Notes: generated from the letters alone by a model not told the origin. Positions 11,512 to 19,837 are shown, counted from the stretch's first letter. The stretch is 64,000 nt of DNA from Acidobacteriota bacterium (GCA_040005235.1 JBDTZG010000003.1:128001-192000), one strand, 5' to 3'. Numbers and translations are program-made.

Positions 11512-13833
11512 TCACCGATGTGCACTCGGTTCACTCGTGGCACCGCTCCCACCTGTCTTAGCCATGTCCAGATCAAGTACGCCGCCAGCCTCCAAATTAC
11601 CCCCCACGCAAGAACGAGAGTCCACCAAGCCTGCGTTGAGAATCGCGGCGTCGAGCGGCGCGAAACAGGCTTGATACCTTCCGGGCGCCAGGCCCGGGAT
11701 CACCAAGCGGGGATGAAACGGAATGATGGGCGACCCCTGTTTCTGCGCCCACTGTGCGAGCGCAGAGAGGGAGAGGAACAGGCCGTCTTGAGAGATGGCG
11801 AGCATCTCCTTTCGATTCAAGCGCTCTTCGAAATCGTCCGGGAGCTCGATGGCGAGGCTTCCTTGTTCGGGTGACAGATATACGGTGCCTCCCGGTCGCG
11901 GAAGACGCAAGCCTCGTAGACCGTAGCCGGGAGCGAGAACGATCGTGATGGCCTCAGTCACCCGGGCAGGAAGGTGGGCCTCGAATCGGCCGTCGAGATC
12001 CGACTGCACCGTGTCGGAGAGGTCCGGGCCGGGCTTTGACGAGAAGAGGAGGATGGAAGCCCCAGCCACAGGACCGGACTCGCTCTGAACACGACCCGCC
12101 CAAGTACCTGCCCGGCGAAGTTCAAGAACGATCGGTCCCGTCGCCGCTTTGGCATCGACCACTCGCACCAGCGGCTCGCTGGATTGCCGATCGCCGCGTT
12201 CGCCAAAGTCTGCCACGAAAGTCGCTTCACCTTCCGGTATGCCATAGAACTCGAATGCGCCTTTCTTGTCGGCCGTGGTGTGAAAGGAGCCTCCCTTCTT
12301 GGCGCTAACGGCCACCAAGGCAGCCTCGGCCGGTTGGCCGGCGGCGTCGACCACGCGCCCGAAGACGCGACTGGCCGGGATTTCAATCTCGACGTCGGCT
12401 CGGTGCTCGCTGGTTGGCTCGACCTTCACCGAAACCCTAGAGGTTCGAGAAGGCTCTCCCCATTCGACATCGACCACCCAACCACCCCCATGCGGGAGCA
12501 CGCCAAAAAACTCGCCGCTGTTCGCCTCCATTTGAACCCGTTCCGCACCGTACTTGCCACCAAAAAGGAGCACGGCATCGAGCGCCTCGTCGGCCCGCCG
12601 AACCGTCCCGCGGATACTCAACAGGTCGAGGCGGATCTCGCGCCGTTCTCCGCTCGCTCCTCCTACACGAAACTGCTGGTCAAACCAATAGTTGTTGCCG
12701 ATCGCATCACTGATCGTTGCGCTGTAGGACCCCGCTTCCAGGCCTTTCGCATGCACGATGCCTTGCTCGTTCGTAGCCCCCTCGAAGGCCGGTCCGTAGC
12801 TGACTCTGTCGCTATGAATGAGCGTGAGCTGCCAAGGCTGCCCCTGCGGGTCCGCCTCAGGAATGATCACGACCTCCAGGTCGCTCGGCGCTTGCAGCAC
12901 CGCAGCGTCCTGCAACAGTGTCTGAATTCCCGCCAACACTTGGATCGGCCCCGAGACGAAGGGCGAGAGGCCCGCCTGGTCGACCTTCAGGCGATACACC
13001 CCGGGTGTGAGTGCGACAAATTCGAACGAGCCGTCCGGCGCCACCAGGCTCTCGTGGCCTGTACTCTGAATACTCAGGCCGAGTCGGGGGTTGCCGTTCG
13101 AAGGTCCGAGGGCGGGCTCGATCCGCGCGAAGCAAAGTCCAGGTGCAAGGGCTCCCCCTTCGACGCGGACCCACCCGGCCACCGAGCCCCCTTTACGCAG
13201 AATGAGTGGCTGAACGCTGCGGGCCTTGGACGCCGAGATCTCGACACTCCGGACGTACCCGGGGGCGAAACCGCCGCCAGGCTGAAACGACAGGTCAAGC
13301 TTCGTCGCCGGCAAGAGACATCGAAAGGTTACCGTTTCCGCGTTCTTGGGCTTCAGATCGCAGCCTGAACGGCCGTTCGGACCCTGTGTCTTTCTCTCCG
13401 CCGGAAGAAGGACGGCGATCTCAAGAGTCGTCGGCAATTTGTCGCGTTTGTCGCTGAGCTTCAACTCGCCTTCCACCACACCCAGAGGCCAAACCTCGAT
13501 TCGAACCGGTTGCTCGGTGAGCTTGGCTTCTACCGTGACAACCCGACGAACGGCCCAAAAACCTTCCGCTTCTAGACCGATCTCCCAGCGCCGCCCCAGA
13601 GGAAGCTCGACCGAGGAGCGCGCTCCGGGTCGAATCTCAACCCGGATCGGGTCCCCCGAATCCGCCGGACGCAGGATCCAATGACCGGCTGGTGGTTTCG
13701 GCGATTCCGCCTTGAGCTCAGCAACGAGGTCAACGCGGACGACCGCAGGCGCCGCCGAAGAGGGTTCCACCGATGCCCATGCCGCCAAGGCAAGAGCGAT
13801 GCTCCCGATCAGGAATGCGCTGAGAGATCTCAT
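11512..13833 (-). CDS. Secreted carboxypeptidase-regulatory-like (Cna-B/transthyretin-like) repeat protein
   Basis: Signal peptide MRSLSAFLIGSIALALAAW; repeated GRVVD..G.P..A.V / TD..G.F.F..L.PG.Y motifs. Confidence 0.75.
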   Translation of the reverse strand: MRSLSAFLIGSIALALAAWASVEPSSAAPAVVRVDLVAELKAESPKPPAGHWILRPADSGDPIRVEIRPGARSSVELPLGRRWEIGLEAEGFWAVRRVVTVEAKLTEQPVRIEVWPLGVVEGELKLSDKRDKLPTTLEIAVLLPAERKTQGPNGRSGCDLKPKNAETVTFRCLLPATKLDLSFQPGGGFAPGYVRSVEISASKARSVQPLILRKGGSVAGWVRVEGGALAPGLCFARIEPALGPSNGNPRLGLSIQSTGHESLVAPDGSFEFVALTPGVYRLKVDQAGLSPFVSGPIQVLAGIQTLLQDAAVLQAPSDLEVVIIPEADPQGQPWQLTLIHSDRVSYGPAFEGATNEQGIVHAKGLEAGSYSATISDAIGNNYWFDQQFRVGGASGERREIRLDLLSIRGTVRRADEALDAVLLFGGKYGAERVQMEANSGEFFGVLPHGGGWVVDVEWGEPSRTSRVSVKVEPTSEHRADVEIEIPASRVFGRVVDAAGQPAEAALVAVSAKKGGSFHTTADKKGAFEFYGIPEGEATFVADFGERGDRQSSEPLVRVVDAKAATGPIVLELRRAGTWAGRVQSESGPVAGASILLFSSKPGPDLSDTVQSDLDGRFEAHLPARVTEAITIVLAPGYGLRGLRLPRPGGTVYLSPEQGSLAIELPDDFEERLNRKEMLAISQDGLFLSLSALAQWAQKQGSPIIPFHPRLVIPGLAPGRYQACFAPLDAAILNAGLVDSRSCVGGNLEAGGVLDLDMAKTGGSGATSEPSAHR

Positions 13834-13834
13834 G

Positions 13835-14001
13835 TCAGATCCGCTGCCCGCCGCCACAACCGCCGCCGCTCCCGGTGCCGCCACCACCGCTGCCGCCGCC
13901 GAAGTCGGGGTTGAGACAAGCACCGCCACTTTTCCTTGGAATGTCCTTTCAAGAGTTGTTGGTGCGCTCGACCTCTGAAACGTGACAACTCAGGTTTTCA
14001 T
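13835..14001 (-). pseudogene. Probable remnant of a small Gly/Cys-rich protein gene upstream of the Cna-B-like gene
   Basis: AAGGAG RBS and ATG giving only MKT*; another frame reads KDIPRKSGGACLNPDFGGGSGGGTGSGGGCGGGQRI* and ends 1 nt before ATG 13833. Confidence 0.4.
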
Positions 14002-14301: not shown

Positions 14302-14742
14302 CTACTCTTGAGCTCTGTCCGACGCCGGCCCGACCCGCCGCTCGAACCGCACGGCCAGGCGCATGATTTCCCTCCGCTGTTCCGCCGCCCATTCGCACAA
14401 TCGCCGGTCGACCGGATCGAGCGTCGCCCCCTCGACGGAGTCCGCTGGCTGCGGCTCGGCCGCCACCTCTTCCACGAAATCCTGGAGATGTCGTAGCTCG
14501 CGCCCCACGGCACGAAGCTTCGCCCGCCGGACCGATTCGCCGAGCCGTTTGGGGTCGAGCGGTTGCTCGCCCGCCCCTTTGTACAGCGCCTCGGCGACGT
14601 ACTCGACGATCTTCCGGATATTGGGTACCCACCGGAATCGCAGCAGCGCCGTCTCGCGCAACAATCCTCCTCGTCGACGCGCCTTCTCCATCTTGTCCAG
14701 CTCCTTTTCGATCGTTTCCTGGATCGGCCCCGGCTTTTTCAC
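14302..14742 (-). CDS. Hypothetical helical protein (146 aa)
   Basis: GTG start overlapping the upstream stop (GTGA); charged helical sequence. Confidence 0.55.
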   Translation of the reverse strand: MKKPGPIQETIEKELDKMEKARRRGGLLRETALLRFRWVPNIRKIVEYVAEALYKGAGEQPLDPKRLGESVRRAKLRAVGRELRHLQDFVEEVAAEPQPADSVEGATLDPVDRRLCEWAAEQRREIMRLAVRFERRVGPASDRAQE

Positions 14743-15353
14743 CGCGCCACCCCCAGATCCCGCCACCACTCGTCGCGCAGCGCGCGCCGTGCGCGCCGCC
14801 GCATTCGAAGGAGATGGAGGAAGGGCCCCGGCTCGATCTGACCTCGGCGAAGGATTGCGGCCCAGACGCGCATAGAGATGTGACCGCCTTCGGGCAAGGA
14901 CTCGGCCCCTTCCTTCGCCAGGTTTTCGATCCGGCCGGCGAGGCCCGGAAGAAGTTCGCCGTGATTCAAAAAAAGAAAGGTACGCCCCAGCTCCAAAGCC
15001 GCCTCGGCAGCGGCGAGCGGGTCGTTCAGGTATTCGTACGCCCAGGCCGCCCGTTCGAACTGCAAGGCCGCTTCGGTGAAGTCGCCGTCTTTCGTGGCGG
15101 TTTCGCCGCGGTGCATGAGCATCCGGGCGAAGCGGCGGACGCTCCTGTCGTCGGGAAAGCTCGTGCGCGCCTTCCCGCGAGAAGCCCGGGGAGGGGGCGA
15201 GGGCGTGCCCTCGCCTTTTGTTGCGGCGGTGGGGTGGGCTTCGGTTTGCGGAGAAGGAGAAAAAGGAGGGCGCGCGTCGATCCTTCCTGCCCGCGCGCCC
15301 CGGGAAACGGAGGGCCGGCGCCTGCTCGAATTGCGGTTGGGGGCGTCGGCCAT
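14739..15353 (-). CDS. Hypothetical protein with a short TPR-like helical region
   Basis: GDFTEAALQFERAAWAYEYLNDPLAAAEAALELG resembles a TPR/SNAP helix pair; start uncertain; divergent from the XRE-TPR gene. Confidence 0.55.
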   Translation of the reverse strand: MADAPNRNSSRRRPSVSRGARAGRIDARPPFSPSPQTEAHPTAATKGEGTPSPPPRASRGKARTSFPDDRSVRRFARMLMHRGETATKDGDFTEAALQFERAAWAYEYLNDPLAAAEAALELGRTFLFLNHGELLPGLAGRIENLAKEGAESLPEGGHISMRVWAAILRRGQIEPGPFLHLLRMRRRARRALRDEWWRDLGVAR

Positions 15354-15570
15354 GCGTCAGACGATAAGCACGAGCGCCACCGCAGTCTTTGAAGCTGGGC
15401 AAGATTTCATGCCCCGGGTACTGCGAATGACAAGTTCGTTCCGAAGACGACGCCCGTCCGGCCATGGGGTTACCTGGCGTCGCGCGAGGTGTTTCGCGGG
15501 GCCGCAAGGCACGTAATTCCGTGTCACGCTAAGCACTTGGTGCGCACCTTCAATTCAAAGAGATCCCTAC

Positions 15571-17007
15571 ATGTCCCGCACGACGGACCCGGTGCTGCTG
15601 AGCGCGTTCAAGGCTCTGTGTTCTCTCCTGGAATGGAGCTGGGGGGAGTTTGCCCGCGCCTTGGGCCTTTCGCGCAACACGCTCCACCGGATCGAAAAGG
15701 GATTGTCCAAGCTGTCGGAGGAAAAGCAGGAGAAGGCGAAAGCGATTCTGGGCGTCACTCCCGAGGAATTCGAAGCCGCCGTCCATTTGGCGACGCTGAT
15801 CTTCAATCGACGCAACGCGGGGATCGCTTCGCCCGCCCCCGGCAGCCGCCGCGCCCGGCTCGCCAAGCATTTTGACGCGGCGGTGCGCGACACGCGCGCC
15901 TTTCTGGAGTCGAGAATCCGAGCGATCGAGGTCGACGAGGCAAAGGAAGAGGCGGAACAGCTCTGGAAGGAGTTGGCCACGAGGCCCCAGAAAGAGCGAA
16001 TCCTGCGGGTCGAGACGTGCGACGAGTTTCTGACCCCGGCGTTCATCGCCCGGGTGTGCGACGAGAGCGTCAAGGCCGCCGCCAAGCGAGCGTCGGATTC
16101 GGTCGACCTGGGGAATCTTGCGTTGAAGGTCGCAGAGCGCGCGCCCGGGACGGAAGCGCAACGGGCGGGGCGCTTGTGGCAAGCCTGGGCTTTCGTGGGC
16201 AATGCTCACAGGGTATGCAACGAATTCGGAGAAGCGGACCTGGCGTTCGCCTCGTCCGGCGAGACCGGCAAATTGGGTGAAGGCGAAGAGCCGGAGTTTT
16301 TCGATCCAGCTAGACCCTTGGACCTAGAGGCTTCCCTTCGAAGGAACCAGGGGCGATTCAGGGATGCCTTGTTGCTGCTCGATCGGGGATTGCAAATCTG
16401 TTGGCCCTCCTCGCGTTCTCGGATCCTTCTCCAACAGGCGACAACACTGGAGCAGAATGGTGACCCGGGGAAAGCAATGGCGGCCCTGGAGGAAGCGCGG
16501 CCTGCGATCGAGCGTGGCGAAGGTGAGCCTCGGTCCAGATGGGTGTTGAATTTCAATGTGGTGAAGAACCTGGTGCATCTGGACCGCGGCGCCGAAGCCG
16601 AAGCCAGGCTTCCTGAAGTGCGGACTCTCGCGGCGGAGCTGGGGAACAATCTTGATCTCTTGCGCACTCGGGCTCTTGGAGGCCAAGTATTGGCAGTAGC
16701 GGGTCACCGTTCTCTGGCATTGCGCGAACTTCGAGCGGTGCGCCTCGAATTTTCGGCACTCTTTTTACGGGCCGACTCTGCTGTTGTTGGCCTCAACGAA
16801 GCCGCGATCCTCCTCAGCGAGGGCCGAAACGTCGAAGTACGGGCGCTGACTAGTGAGATGCGCCCGGTCTTCAATACGCTGGGTCTCGAACGACAGTCAC
16901 TCGCAGCCGTACGGCTGTTCCTGGAAGCCGTGGAGCGTGATGCGGCTACGGTAGCCCTGGCGCGAGAAGCCGCCCGCTGCATTTGCCGGTTGCCTCGCCG
17001 TAGTTAA
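15571..17007 (+). CDS. XRE-family HTH + TPR-repeat regulator (paralog 1)
   Basis: WSWGEFARALGLSRNTLHRIEKG XRE HTH; TPR helices (EASLRRNQGRFRDALLLLDRGL). Confidence 0.85.
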   Translation: MSRTTDPVLLSAFKALCSLLEWSWGEFARALGLSRNTLHRIEKGLSKLSEEKQEKAKAILGVTPEEFEAAVHLATLIFNRRNAGIASPAPGSRRARLAKHFDAAVRDTRAFLESRIRAIEVDEAKEEAEQLWKELATRPQKERILRVETCDEFLTPAFIARVCDESVKAAAKRASDSVDLGNLALKVAERAPGTEAQRAGRLWQAWAFVGNAHRVCNEFGEADLAFASSGETGKLGEGEEPEFFDPARPLDLEASLRRNQGRFRDALLLLDRGLQICWPSSRSRILLQQATTLEQNGDPGKAMAALEEARPAIERGEGEPRSRWVLNFNVVKNLVHLDRGAEAEARLPEVRTLAAELGNNLDLLRTRALGGQVLAVAGHRSLALRELRAVRLEFSALFLRADSAVVGLNEAAILLSEGRNVEVRALTSEMRPVFNTLGLERQSLAAVRLFLEAVERDAATVALAREAARCICRLPRRS

Positions 17008-17048
17008 GTTCTCGATCCACGGAGCGCGCTCCGAGTTCATTCCGTGGC

Positions 17049-17351
17049 TCAGTGGTTCGGTTGACCGTTAGGGTCTGCCTCAATGCCGATGTCCTGAGAA
17101 CCGGGACCGGCGGCCGGCTGTCCGTTAGGATGGGCGACAGCGCCATTGTTGCCAACAACGATTCCGGGTGCCGGCCGGTCGCTCGGATCGACCACTGCGC
17201 CGAGTTCCTCCCAGAGCGCCGAAAGCAGGCTCCAGGGGGAGGAGAAGAAGGAACAGTCCCTCGGCGCGGCCCCGGCGGGCAGGGCGAGGAAAGCGAGCAG
17301 GAGGAGGGCGGCGACGGATCGGTGCGGGCGGCTTTGCGGGGAGGGGTTCAT
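17049..17351 (-). CDS. Small secreted protein / putative propeptide with three GxxxDPNG-like repeats
   Basis: AAGGAG RBS; Sec signal ending AGA; cores ELGAVVDPSD, NNGAVAHPNG, DIGIEADPNG. Confidence 0.75.
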   Translation of the reverse strand: MNPSPQSRPHRSVAALLLLAFLALPAGAAPRDCSFFSSPWSLLSALWEELGAVVDPSDRPAPGIVVGNNGAVAHPNGQPAAGPGSQDIGIEADPNGQPNH

Positions 17352-17498
17352 GGGGTCTCCTTGGGTTTCGAGGGCGGCGGGCGGCGGAAGTGCCGAACCG
17401 AGCCCCTCGAAAAGAAAGTGTCGCGTAGGACAAATGTCGCGCTGGAATCATGGGGCATGCACGGGCGGGCGGCGAGAGGCTCCAAACGGGAGGTTCAG

Positions 17499-18974
17499 AT
17501 GAGCACCCAGGACGAGATGGCCACCCGAATTCGAGTCTCTCGGGCACTCAAGGGCTGGAAGCAGGTCGACGTCGCCCGCAAAGCTCGGATGGACCCCAGC
17601 GCCCTCTCTCGCTACGAAAAGGAGGGGGGAGACGCCGCTCCTCGGGACGTGACGGAGCGGATTCACGCAGCAACCGAAGTTTCCCTCGCGTTCTCCGAGG
17701 TGGTCGTCTCCTCGTACAGGGTTCTCCAACGTCAAGCGAGTCGGCCGACAAGAAGTGAAAGGGGCTACGAGGACGATTTGGTCGCCGAGGTGGCCAGCCG
17801 TTTCGCTGCGTCGCTCGCTCCCGCTTTCATCGTGCTGCCTGTCCCGGACGTCCAGCCGCCCATGAACGATTCTCCTCCTACAATGGAGAATCGAGCCGAA
17901 GGGGAAATGCTCTTCCAGCGGCTCGTGCCCCTCCCGGAGAGCGACCGGCTTTTAGTAGTCGCCAAGGGATGCCAATTTCGAACGGCCGCGCTGTGCGAGA
18001 GGCTCTGCGAGGAGAGCGTTTTCTGGGCTGCAAAGAGCGCCGACAACGCCCTCCATTGGGCGGAACTCGCCTTGCGGGTTGCTGAGCGGATTCCCGGTTC
18101 GGAAGGGAAACGTGCGAGAGGAATGGGCTATGCCTGGGCTTTCGTCGGCAATTCGCTCCGAGTCGCCAACGAGTTCCCCGCGGTCGATGCCGCGTTCGCG
18201 CAGTTCCGGAAACTGTATGCCTTAGGTGACGAAAGAGCGTCTGGCTGGTTCGACGAGGCCCGTGCGCTTGATCTCGAAGCGTCCCTCCGCCGAAACCAGG
18301 GTCGATTCGGTGACGCACTGAAATTGCTTGACCGGGCGCTCGAAATCGGCAATCCCTCTCTGCGCACCCAACTACTTCTGAACATGGCGGTGACCTTGGA
18401 GCAGGATGGCCGGGCCGATCGGGCGCTCCGTGCACTCGAGGAAGCACGGACCGCTATCGAACAGGGCGAAGGAGGGCCGCGCTTCCTTTGGGTCTGGCAA
18501 TTCAACGTGGTGAAGAATCTGGTCCACCTGTACCGGGCAACTGAAGCAGAAGCGCTGCTGCCGGAGCTGCGGCTGCTCGCGGCCAAGTTGGGCAACGATC
18601 TTGACCAACTGCGCACCCGGGCGCTTACGGGCGAGGTTCTGGCGGCTTTGAGGAAGCGGGACGAAGCCCTCGCAGACTTTTCGGCGGTCCGAGCCGAGTT
18701 CACAACCCGGAGACTTTTCGCAGACGCGGCCGTCGTGGGCCTCCATGAGGCGGTGATCCTGCTGGAAGGCAGCCGCTCGGCGAAAGTCCGCACCCTCGTC
18801 CGCGCCATGAAACCGATCTTCGATTCGCTCGGCCTGAAGCGGGAAGCGCTCGCCGCCTATCGGCTGTTCGTCGTTGCCGTCGAGCAGGAAGCCGCAACGG
18901 CCACCATGGCCCGCGAGCTGGCGAAAGCGATCGAGCGGGCCGGCCGAAGGGGAGGCGGAGCGGCGGCGGGGTAA
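17499..18974 (+). CDS. XRE-family HTH + TPR-repeat regulator (paralog 2)
   Basis: GGGAGG RBS, ATG 17499; WKQVDVARKARMDPSALSRYEK HTH; blocks shared with paralog 1 (AWAFVGN, LDLEASLRRNQGRF, FNVVKNLVHL, LRTRAL). Confidence 0.85.
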   Translation: MSTQDEMATRIRVSRALKGWKQVDVARKARMDPSALSRYEKEGGDAAPRDVTERIHAATEVSLAFSEVVVSSYRVLQRQASRPTRSERGYEDDLVAEVASRFAASLAPAFIVLPVPDVQPPMNDSPPTMENRAEGEMLFQRLVPLPESDRLLVVAKGCQFRTAALCERLCEESVFWAAKSADNALHWAELALRVAERIPGSEGKRARGMGYAWAFVGNSLRVANEFPAVDAAFAQFRKLYALGDERASGWFDEARALDLEASLRRNQGRFGDALKLLDRALEIGNPSLRTQLLLNMAVTLEQDGRADRALRALEEARTAIEQGEGGPRFLWVWQFNVVKNLVHLYRATEAEALLPELRLLAAKLGNDLDQLRTRALTGEVLAALRKRDEALADFSAVRAEFTTRRLFADAAVVGLHEAVILLEGSRSAKVRTLVRAMKPIFDSLGLKREALAAYRLFVVAVEQEAATATMARELAKAIERAGRRGGGAAAG

Positions 18975-19077
18975 GACCGCCCAGCTCACTGCAGCGCAGG
19001 ACCAGATCGCCTCGGAAACGGCCCGGCTCACCACGGCGTCTGCCTAGGTCACTATCGAGACGACCCGGACCACCATA

Positions 19078-19434
19078 AAGCTGGGCCAGATCACTACTGA
19101 GCTGGACCAGATCACTACTGAGCTGGACCAGATCACTACTGAGCTGGACCGGATCACCACTGAGCTGGACCAGATCACCACTGAGCTGGCCCAGACCACC
19201 AGTGAGCTGGCCCAGATCACCACTGAGCTGGCCCAGACCACTACTGAGCTGGACTAGATCACCAGTGAGCTGGCCCGGACCACCAGTGGCCTGGCTCAGA
19301 CCACCAGTGAGCTGGCCCAGATCACCACTGAGCTGGCTCAGACCACCAGTGAGCTGGCCCAGATCACCACTGAGCTGGCTCAGACCACCAGTGAGCTGGC
19401 CCAAATTACCTCTGAGCTGGCCGGGATCACCCCT
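19078..19434. repeat. Tandem repeat, 17 x 21 bp (consensus GAGCTGGCCCAGATCACCACT)
   Basis: Counted units at 21-nt period (19078, 19099, 19120, 19141 ... 19414); no spacers. Confidence 0.95.
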
Positions 19435-19837
19435 ACCCGCCCGGAAACGCATCCCGGATCAGCGTATACGTCCAGCCTCCGGAAGGGCTGGCGTCGAGGC
19501 CGAGGACGTCGAAGCGGCAGGGGCCATCCCAAGGGTGGGTGGCGAGGTAGAGTCCGGCCGCTCGGGCGAGACGGCGTTGCTTGGAGCGGGGGACGGCGGC
19601 GATCGCCGGGCCGTAGGCGTCGGTGGAGCGCGCTTTGATTTCCACGAAGGCCAGGGTTTCGCCTTCGCGGGCGACCAGATCGATCTCGCCGCAATGGTTG
19701 GTGACGTTGCGCTCGATCGTGGCGAAGCCTTGAGTGGAGAGCCAGGCGACGGCGGCGTCCTCGCCCACTTTGCCGCGCCCGCGGTGATGGGGAACGCGGG
19801 AGAAATCGCTCGGTTCGCTCGGTCCCGGCGCTTCCAT
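19433..19837 (-). CDS. yraN: YraN family (UPF0102) putative endonuclease
   Basis: GKVGEDAA..L, GEIDLVAREGETLAFVEIKAR, CRFDV. Confidence 0.9.
   Translation of the reverse strand: MEAPGPSEPSDFSRVPHHRGRGKVGEDAAVAWLSTQGFATIERNVTNHCGEIDLVAREGETLAFVEIKARSTDAYGPAIAAVPRSKQRRLARAAGLYLATHPWDGPCRFDVLGLDASPSGGWTYTLIRDAFPGG

Follow-up and report, generated by a model that had tools for sequence, protein, structure and literature searches.

Three papers describe peptide-receptor systems of the RRNPP(A) type for Bacillota and their phages, plasmids and mobile elements (PMC10075063, PMC12700828, PMC9765709). The operational definition given for RRNPP_detector is a tetratricopeptide repeat (TPR) receptor of 250-500 aa encoded beside a Sec-exported propeptide of 10-100 aa (PMC10075063). 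Here we analyze a locus of comparable layout in a diderm. It lies in a stretch of 64,000 nucleotides from an Acidobacteriota bacterium (GCA_040005235.1, JBDTZG010000003.1:128001-192000), hereafter the window, where positions 15571-18974 encode two paralogous proteins of 478 and 491 aa, each combining an XRE-type helix-turn-helix (HTH) with TPR helices, around a gene for a 100-aa protein. The original prediction, made from this DNA alone, read the locus as a possible RRNPP-like system and an undescribed acidobacterial family of peptide communication, and held that such systems are described from Bacillota and their phages. The last point agrees with our literature search of full texts, which returned no report of RRNPP(A) systems in Gram-negative or diderm bacteria or in Acidobacteriota, nor any outside Bacillota. 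No paper describing the cassette family was found either, and the family proved to be large; its role in communication is what we infer.

Among the described systems, NprR-NprX shares with this locus a cytoplasmic receptor in which an N-terminal XRE-type HTH precedes nine TPR-like helix pairs, and an adjacent gene for a Sec-exported propeptide. The two differ in that the host here is an acidobacterial diderm and no sequence relation is detectable. Furthermore, each peptide here is accompanied by two receptor paralogs with unrelated HTH regions and by a tail-like fourth gene, while the precursor carries several DPxG cores and a conserved Trp helix and occurs in about 30 cassettes per genome. 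Propeptides holding more than one peptide are known in RRNPPA systems (PMC9765709; PMC11343458), and some Phr propeptides hold tandem pheromone copies (PMC11343458). Rap-Phr systems also provide the best structural matches of the TPR module and, like the cassette, are present in a genome as many paralogous pairs of receptor and peptide. A Rap protein lacks an HTH and exerts its effect on partner proteins, whereas the output here is an XRE HTH, or another N-terminus in 14 of 34 paralogs scanned, and the peptide gene is convergent or divergent instead of operon-downstream. PlcR is an activator with a palindromic PlcR box; PlcR-PapR thus resembles the locus in its HTH-TPR regulator, its adjacent exported propeptide and its palindromic box, which here is a candidate operator. 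The PlcR structure 2qfc is matched in sequence over the HTH only (E 0.001), and in structure by Foldseek at E 5e-3. With five TPRs in about 285 aa, PlcR contrasts with the nine helix pairs in about 480 aa of the window receptor, and its TPR part is unrelated in sequence.

In the window, gene X, receptor A, the peptide gene and receptor B form one four-gene copy of a lineage-specific cassette of Thermoanaerobaculia. Receptor A (15571-17007, + strand, 478 aa), composed of an XRE HTH, a helical linker and a TPR-like superhelix, is convergent with the peptide gene (17049-17351, - strand, 100 aa, stop codon 17049-17051). Receptor B (17499-18974, + strand, 491 aa), with an XRE HTH, a linker and nine helix pairs, is divergent from the peptide gene, and gene X (14739-15353, - strand), encoding a 204-aa cytoplasmic helical protein, is divergent from receptor A. 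The predicted reading frames of the two paralogs and the small gene, and their relative directions, agree with our coordinates, and the strong ribosome-binding site claimed for the small gene was found as AAGGAG, 5 nt ahead of its ATG. We place the start of receptor B at the ATG at 17499, preceded by GGGAGG at 5-6 nt, from which the orthologs align; a longer 640-aa frame starting with GTG is an upstream extension. The possibility that the small gene is a shadow open reading frame (ORF) was ruled out by its ribosome site, its conserved protein-level features and the intact frames in related loci. A promoter and terminator scan of 15200-19500 gave no sigma-70-like site and two terminator-like sites against 4.0 expected, and was uninformative.

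The evidence that ties the small gene to the receptors comes from the other copies of the cassette. Profile searches over all six-frame ORFs of the same genome (6.2 Mb in 140 contigs) identified 31 small genes, nearly all with a Shine-Dalgarno site and a signal-like start, and 57 receptor-family ORFs; with tblastn, receptor B had 45 matches and the small protein 22, and many of these were neighbors. The check proposed with the original prediction, co-localization of the two profiles, was strongly positive: a receptor ORF is found no farther than 1 kb from 29 of the 31 small genes, compared with a mean of 0.95 and a maximum of 5 in 2,000 random placements, and every receptor matched at E <= 1e-100 (23/23) has a small gene within 1 kb. 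Twelve of the 31 loci are triads like that of the window, in which receptors on the opposite strand flank the small gene; in 11 pairs the small gene is immediately upstream of a receptor on the same strand. The remainder comprises three pairs with a convergent receptor alone, three other arrangements and two orphan small genes. Of the triads, seven have a second regulator shortened to HTH and linker; both are full length in the window cassette. When the ORFs within 5 kb of the 31 small genes were clustered, only the receptor, small-gene and X families recurred; shadow ORFs of the GC-rich DNA made the other clusters unreliable.

The same association extends to other genomes. For the search of related genomes we used an alignment of 24 of the 31 small proteins, six lacking a stored locus and one atypical copy having been dropped. 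The small gene was found in all 24 genomes of the same family, with 4-45 matches each, and, within the same order but outside the family, in 6 of 16 genomes. An even sample across the phylum gave no small gene in 150 other genomes at E <= 1e-8, with 32 candidates scored per genome. Of 31 small-gene matches in five genomes representing four families, 30 have a receptor match no more than 1 kb away, the small gene being mostly upstream and on the same strand. An ORF of the small family is also carried by 74 of 78 receptor-seeded loci from named metagenome-assembled genomes. The nearest homologs and these 78 related loci all come from Thermoanaerobaculia or Acidobacteriota metagenome-assembled genomes; three of these bear the label Holophagales. 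Where the small gene is missing from a genome of the order, receptor matches number 0-3, except in a single genome that has 13; counts of receptor copies saturate, as 38 candidates were scored per genome, and we use the contrast of presence and absence alone. A profile search of 1.84 billion cluster representatives returned 2,266 matches with E <= 1e-3, of which 500 had E <= 1e-10; neither Pfam nor NCBIfam has a model for the family.

Within the genus the cassette can be followed as a unit. The whole cassette has DNA matches of 74-78% identity in four congeneric genomes, in which the orthologs of receptor A are 75-81% identical, those of receptor B 65-72% and those of the peptide 56-66%. Among the peptide orthologs the signal and the Trp helix are nearly invariant, and the number of cores varies from 2 to 4. 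One congeneric ortholog (G003) also keeps the same upstream neighbor, a gene for an 805-aa protein. On these comparisons, because orthologs are present in congeneric genomes and the neighbor is kept, the window cassette is judged to be chromosomal and vertically inherited at least within the genus. The shared neighbor likewise ruled out a mobile element. The 805-aa protein itself (11512-13929, - strand) has three CarboxypepD_reg-like domains (E 5e-22) and a signal-like start.

Both receptors carry an HTH_3 domain above the Pfam cut-off of 23 bits (27.2 bits in A, 23.5 in B), and receptor B additionally matches TPR_12 (33.5 bits, cut-off 30.1); a TPR_MalT match is below its cut-off. Their C-terminal 355 residues are 55% identical (E 4e-116), while the N-terminal approximately 125 residues do not align with each other, and therefore the DNA-reading heads have diverged. 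Neither protein has a membrane-like segment, the most hydrophobic 19-mer of receptor A reaching a Kyte-Doolittle value of 1.35, under the level of a membrane helix, and by this sequence measure both receptors are cytoplasmic. The AlphaFold2 (AF2) model of receptor B, built from an 84-row alignment, has a predicted local distance difference test (pLDDT) score of 87.9 and shows the HTH at residues 6-59, two long linker helices and 18 helices, or nine pairs, across 129-481. Realignment with VIA gave as top matches RapJ-PhrC (4gyo; Z 22.5, root-mean-square deviation 3.4, 292 residues aligned), the phi3T Rap (8rsv; Z 22.1) and RapF-PhrF (4i9c; Z 22.0), with NprR at Z 20.7 (5dbk; root-mean-square deviation 3.8, 298 aligned) and 19.9 (4gpk).

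In RRNPP receptors, conserved Asn residues on the concave TPR face contact the peptide, as reported in PMC4794775. Asn residues of two motifs of the window receptors had been singled out as possibly lining such a groove. N218 of the WAFVGN motif is invariant in 84 of 84 aligned homologs, as are C170, R221 and S262; the Asn residues of FNVVKN fall outside the columns conserved at 90% or more.

The N-terminal part is variable across the family. An XRE HTH is present in 20 of the 34 receptor paralog ORFs scanned, and the other 14 show no HTH. In four of the 57 receptor-family ORFs, a zinc-finger anti-sigma-like HxxxCxxC motif replaces the XRE HTH (examples in G000 are C100:15683-17239, C121:1576-3048, C103:48923-50251 and C104:117919-119172), and one paralog has a zf-HC2 match below the cut-off (19.7 versus 22.2 bits). 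Neither an N-terminal HxxxCxxC motif nor a zf-HC2 match in Pfam is present in the two window receptors, both of which have the XRE HTH. In view of the paralogs with HxxxCxxC or HTH-less N-termini, the TPR sensor module may be wired to different outputs.

The small protein belongs to no Pfam family, and an ESM Atlas look-up gave as its nearest clusters unnamed Acidobacteriota proteins at 0.88-0.89, below the level counted as a match. Residues 1-28 (17268-17351, - strand) form a Sec-type signal peptide with a putative cleavage site at their end. As the original prediction held, the start has signal character: a charged n-region is followed by a hydrophobic stretch (maximum Kyte-Doolittle value 2.0 at residues 12-30) and an AF2 helix at residues 9-22, this assignment coming from hydropathy and model. 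The AF2 model, based on a 20-row alignment, places its only other helix at residues 37-50, the amphipathic Trp helix PWSLLSALWEEL (17202-17243, - strand), in which W47 is conserved in at least 90% of 24 paralogs; the stretch is nearly invariant among eight related precursors. A lipoprotein was rejected, as no lipobox precedes Cys33.

Residues 51-100 (17052-17201, - strand) hold three cores, GAVVDPSDRP, GAVAHPNGQP and GIEADPNGQP, separated by Pro/Ala/Gly spacers and ending in a C-terminal NH. Three GxxxDPNG cores had been predicted; only the last unit (GIEADPNG) has that form strictly, the first two (GAVVDPSD and GAVAHPNG) are degenerate, and the general form of the units is G-x-x-x-D-P-x-G-x-P. 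AF2 block means are approximately 50 or below over this region, with segments 58-75, 82-92 and 96-100 under 50, and the Atlas model of the peptide has a pLDDT of 0.40. The peptide is accordingly predicted by both models to be disordered after the Trp helix, with no stable fold past residue 50.

Comparison across the family shows what is kept and what varies. All 31 members in the genome have a signal-like start, a helix with a near-invariant Trp (xFLSALWA) and Pro/Ala-rich spacers. Each also has between one and four cores that follow the pattern [DEN]-x-G-x-x-[ILV]-D-P-x-G-x-[P or C]. The strict motif G...DP.G is found more often than chance would give, 47 times in 3,137 family residues, compared with 512 times in 10.55 million residues of six-frame ORFs from the same genome. 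Related precursors have 2-4 cores and differ by insertion or deletion of whole cores; in the cassette orthologs the middle three positions vary (AVV, IEA, LEM, LVV, SVV). Cores are more alike within a precursor (similarity 0.64, n=53) than between precursors (0.42, n=2027). A Cys-bracketed core, G-C-x-x-D-P-x-G-x-C, is present in 11 of the 31 members and would form a nine-residue ring if oxidized. This form dominates among 74 small genes of other genomes, where the C-terminus is often SGH or PGH. The window peptide belongs to the Cys-less branch.

An alignment of eight related loci revealed two sharply conserved blocks in otherwise drifting intergenic DNA. The first contains a 14-bp near-palindrome, CACGTAATTCCGTG (15510-15523), in the divergent promoter region of X and receptor A; it falls within the best-conserved upstream block in all eight loci and is followed by TCACGC. 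Allowing one mismatch, it occurs at two sites in the 6.2-Mb genome, the window and the same position of the closest paralogous cassette (C118). The second is a 50-bp block (17414-17463) in the divergent promoter region of the peptide gene and receptor B, a candidate operator or promoter, which contains TGTCGCG-N9-TGTCGCG and GACAAATGTC. Seven of the eight related loci have this block in nearly invariant form and the C118 paralog retains part of it, with variable flanks, and the GACAAATGTC 25-mer is single-copy in the genome at up to four mismatches. An inverted-repeat finder run on both intergenic regions returned nothing useful, and the palindrome emerged from the alignment of related loci. 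Judged by their conservation and distribution, both blocks are candidate operators private to the cassette.

Gene X is a member of a family of 15 ORFs in the genome, 13 of them within 408 bp of a receptor ORF, and is found beside five of seven related cassettes, with a remnant in one and no counterpart in one. Using hhalign, the X family profile aligned to receptor residues 354-477, the last six helices, with a probability of 61.5% and E 7.8e-5; the single X sequence against the receptor alignment gave a probability of 1.9% only. This modest similarity suggests that X is probably a free-standing copy of the receptors' C-terminal helices. A small free-standing protein that resembles the C-terminal interaction region of a neighboring XRE regulator invites comparison with antagonism of the SinI/SinR type, although the fold of X consists of TPR-like helices and not of the SinR multimerization domain. 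The first 57 nt of gene X (15300-15356; N-terminus MADAPNRNSSRRRPSVSR) match several loci in other members of the genus at 89-96% DNA identity, a much higher value than the 74-78% seen over the remaining cassette.

Taken by the RRNPP_detector definition, the cassette qualifies as RRNPP, and by homology it does not. The receptor is a cytoplasmic TPR superhelix (18 helices in the AF2 model, no membrane segment), an N-terminal HTH scores above the Pfam cut-off in both receptors, and the adjacent small gene encodes 100 aa with signal-peptide features; the host lies outside Bacillota, and the cassette outside their mobile elements. The sequence data and models establish the genes, their close and old linkage, the cytoplasmic receptors with HTH and nine-repeat TPR architecture, the exported, disordered precursor with several cores, and the conserved promoter blocks private to the cassette. 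The explanation we favor, at about even odds, is that the cassette is an RRNPP-like peptide-receptor signalling module in a diderm, with binding, processing and import presumed. In such a module the prepropeptide would leave the cytoplasm through Sec and lose its signal near residue 28, the family-wide Trp helix would serve as a common handle for processing, and the variable DPxG cores would be released. In most paralogs, though not in the Cys-less window copy, the core may then be closed into a nine-residue disulfide ring. The cores would return through an outer-membrane channel and an OPT- or Opp-type importer and would bind the concave TPR face of receptor A, receptor B or both. Binding would alter receptor occupancy of the 15510-15523 palindrome and the 17414-17463 block, and protein X, as a mimic of the receptor tail, may modulate receptor pairing.

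Several observations weigh against this reading. Layout, linkage and a Rap/NprR-like fold bear out part of the original prediction, but RRNPP membership was not found at the sequence level: Pfam and NCBIfam searches place the receptors in no RRNPP family and give only generic TPR and XRE matches, a PDB profile search yields generic chains of the TPR and XRE kinds and matches PlcR over the HTH alone (E 0.001), and homology to a described RRNPPA subfamily was not found. The structural comparison is similarly divided. In the Foldseek search of the PDB, Rap proteins and PlcR are present at E about 1e-3 to 5e-3, but generic TPR proteins rank ahead of them, and the Rap and NprR scores from VIA are tied within 1-2 Z units with APPBP2 (22.2), LGN (20.8) and subunits of the APC. 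Because of these ties, we assign the modeled receptor fold to the class of peptide-binding TPR superhelices, which RRNPP receptors match as well as any, and kinship is not proven thereby. The pro-region is more conserved than the cores, unlike that of typical RRNPP propeptides. Sec export in a diderm ends at the periplasm, and contact of the peptide with the groove, like its processing, is something we infer. Within 5 kb of the 31 loci, no family of transporters or proteases is recurrent, which leaves no linked route out or back. The palindrome is limited to the cassette and its closest paralog, and therefore no regulon is visible beyond the cassette. Finally, three secreted proteins, each 670-780 aa long (P0135, P0158 and P0204), are also filled with the DPNG[RK] repeat, which leaves room for non-signalling roles.

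As candidate inner-membrane peptide importers, the genome has three genes of the OPT type and a single SBP_bac_5 gene, all unlinked to the window cassette. The genome's only SBP_bac_5 (OppA/DppA-type) gene, G000:C8:64502-65602, is about 3.7 kb downstream of another cassette copy (C8:57949-60791), and this proximity may be coincidence.

The small proteins could instead be secreted effectors, acting in competition, as protease-inhibitor-like loops or by binding metals or surfaces, with HTH-TPR regulators that answer another cue and do not bind them. Cys-closed loops are a common design of stable extracellular peptides, and most family members carry a nine-residue loop of this kind; fast-evolving cores, in about 30 diversified copies per genome, would likewise be in keeping with an arms race. 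The absence of a linked importer is consistent with effectors, as is the privacy of the candidate operators, which makes the cassette itself the sole visible output. We nevertheless find this explanation rather unlikely, since a one-to-one linkage of small gene and TPR regulator over more than 100 cassettes in several families is not usual for simple regulation of an effector, genes for immunity, export or modification do not recur in the neighborhood, and the sensor domain is of the peptide-binding TPR type nearest Rap and NprR.

Another alternative keeps the peptides inside the cell envelope: fragments would be cut in the periplasm and taken straight back, and the receptors would report on secretion flux, or on the protease or redox activity of the periplasm, instead of on population density. 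That Sec export in a diderm stops at the periplasm fits such a self-sensing loop, and disulfide closure of the Cys-type cores would be expected to depend on the periplasmic redox state; inner-membrane OPT and Opp candidates are present, and the cassette has no linked component of the outer membrane. For a single compartment, however, thirty or more reporters in parallel would look redundant, and the diversification of cores between cassettes suggests discrimination among signals, which makes this loop improbable. A reading of the DPxG units as a folded or ion-binding repeat of an unprocessed envelope protein, with the regulators linked for another reason, is very improbable: the three large secreted proteins with about 30 DPNG[RK] units show that a large protein can have this unit as its repeat, but AF2 gives no fold for residues 51-100 of the peptide, the number of cores ranges from 1 to 4 and changes among close orthologs, and the tight linkage to the regulators would be left unexplained. 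In P0135, P0158 and P0204, which belong to no Pfam family, about 30 tandem G-x-x-[ILMV]-DPNG-[RK] units stand between an N-terminal region and a C-terminal region of DEWDGEVVKR repeats.

On the other side of receptor B, between it and a YraN-like gene, positions 19079-19431 consist of a 21-bp tandem repeat (16.8 copies, 85% matches). It reads as heptads, ITTELDQ-like on the + strand and GDLGQLS-like on the - strand; the + frame has a stop in mid-array, and the - frame is open across 18700-19458. Similar arrays match at about 70% at many sites of this and related genomes.

As a signalling module of the RRNPP-like kind, the acidobacterial cassette family would widen the known range of peptide communication to an abundant, uncultured, outer-membrane soil phylum, and it would raise the question of how peptides of 1 kDa pass out and back through two membranes. 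The cassette is compact: its defined peptides, two receptors and two candidate operators are directly testable. We tentatively extend this reading to the scale of the genome, where each Thermoanaerobaculia genome might hold 30-45 private peptide channels, in which the DPxG units of an exported multi-core precursor, mostly as nine-residue disulfide rings, would be re-imported and read by their own HTH-TPR pair; this wider proposal is possible but somewhat doubtful. The rooting of the RRNPPA tree is named as an open point in PMC12700828, and the cassette family is a possible outgroup for it. If true, the network of private channels would be the first RRNPP-type pheromone signalling in an outer-membrane bacterium, and would represent either an independent invention or the long-sought RRNPPA outgroup.

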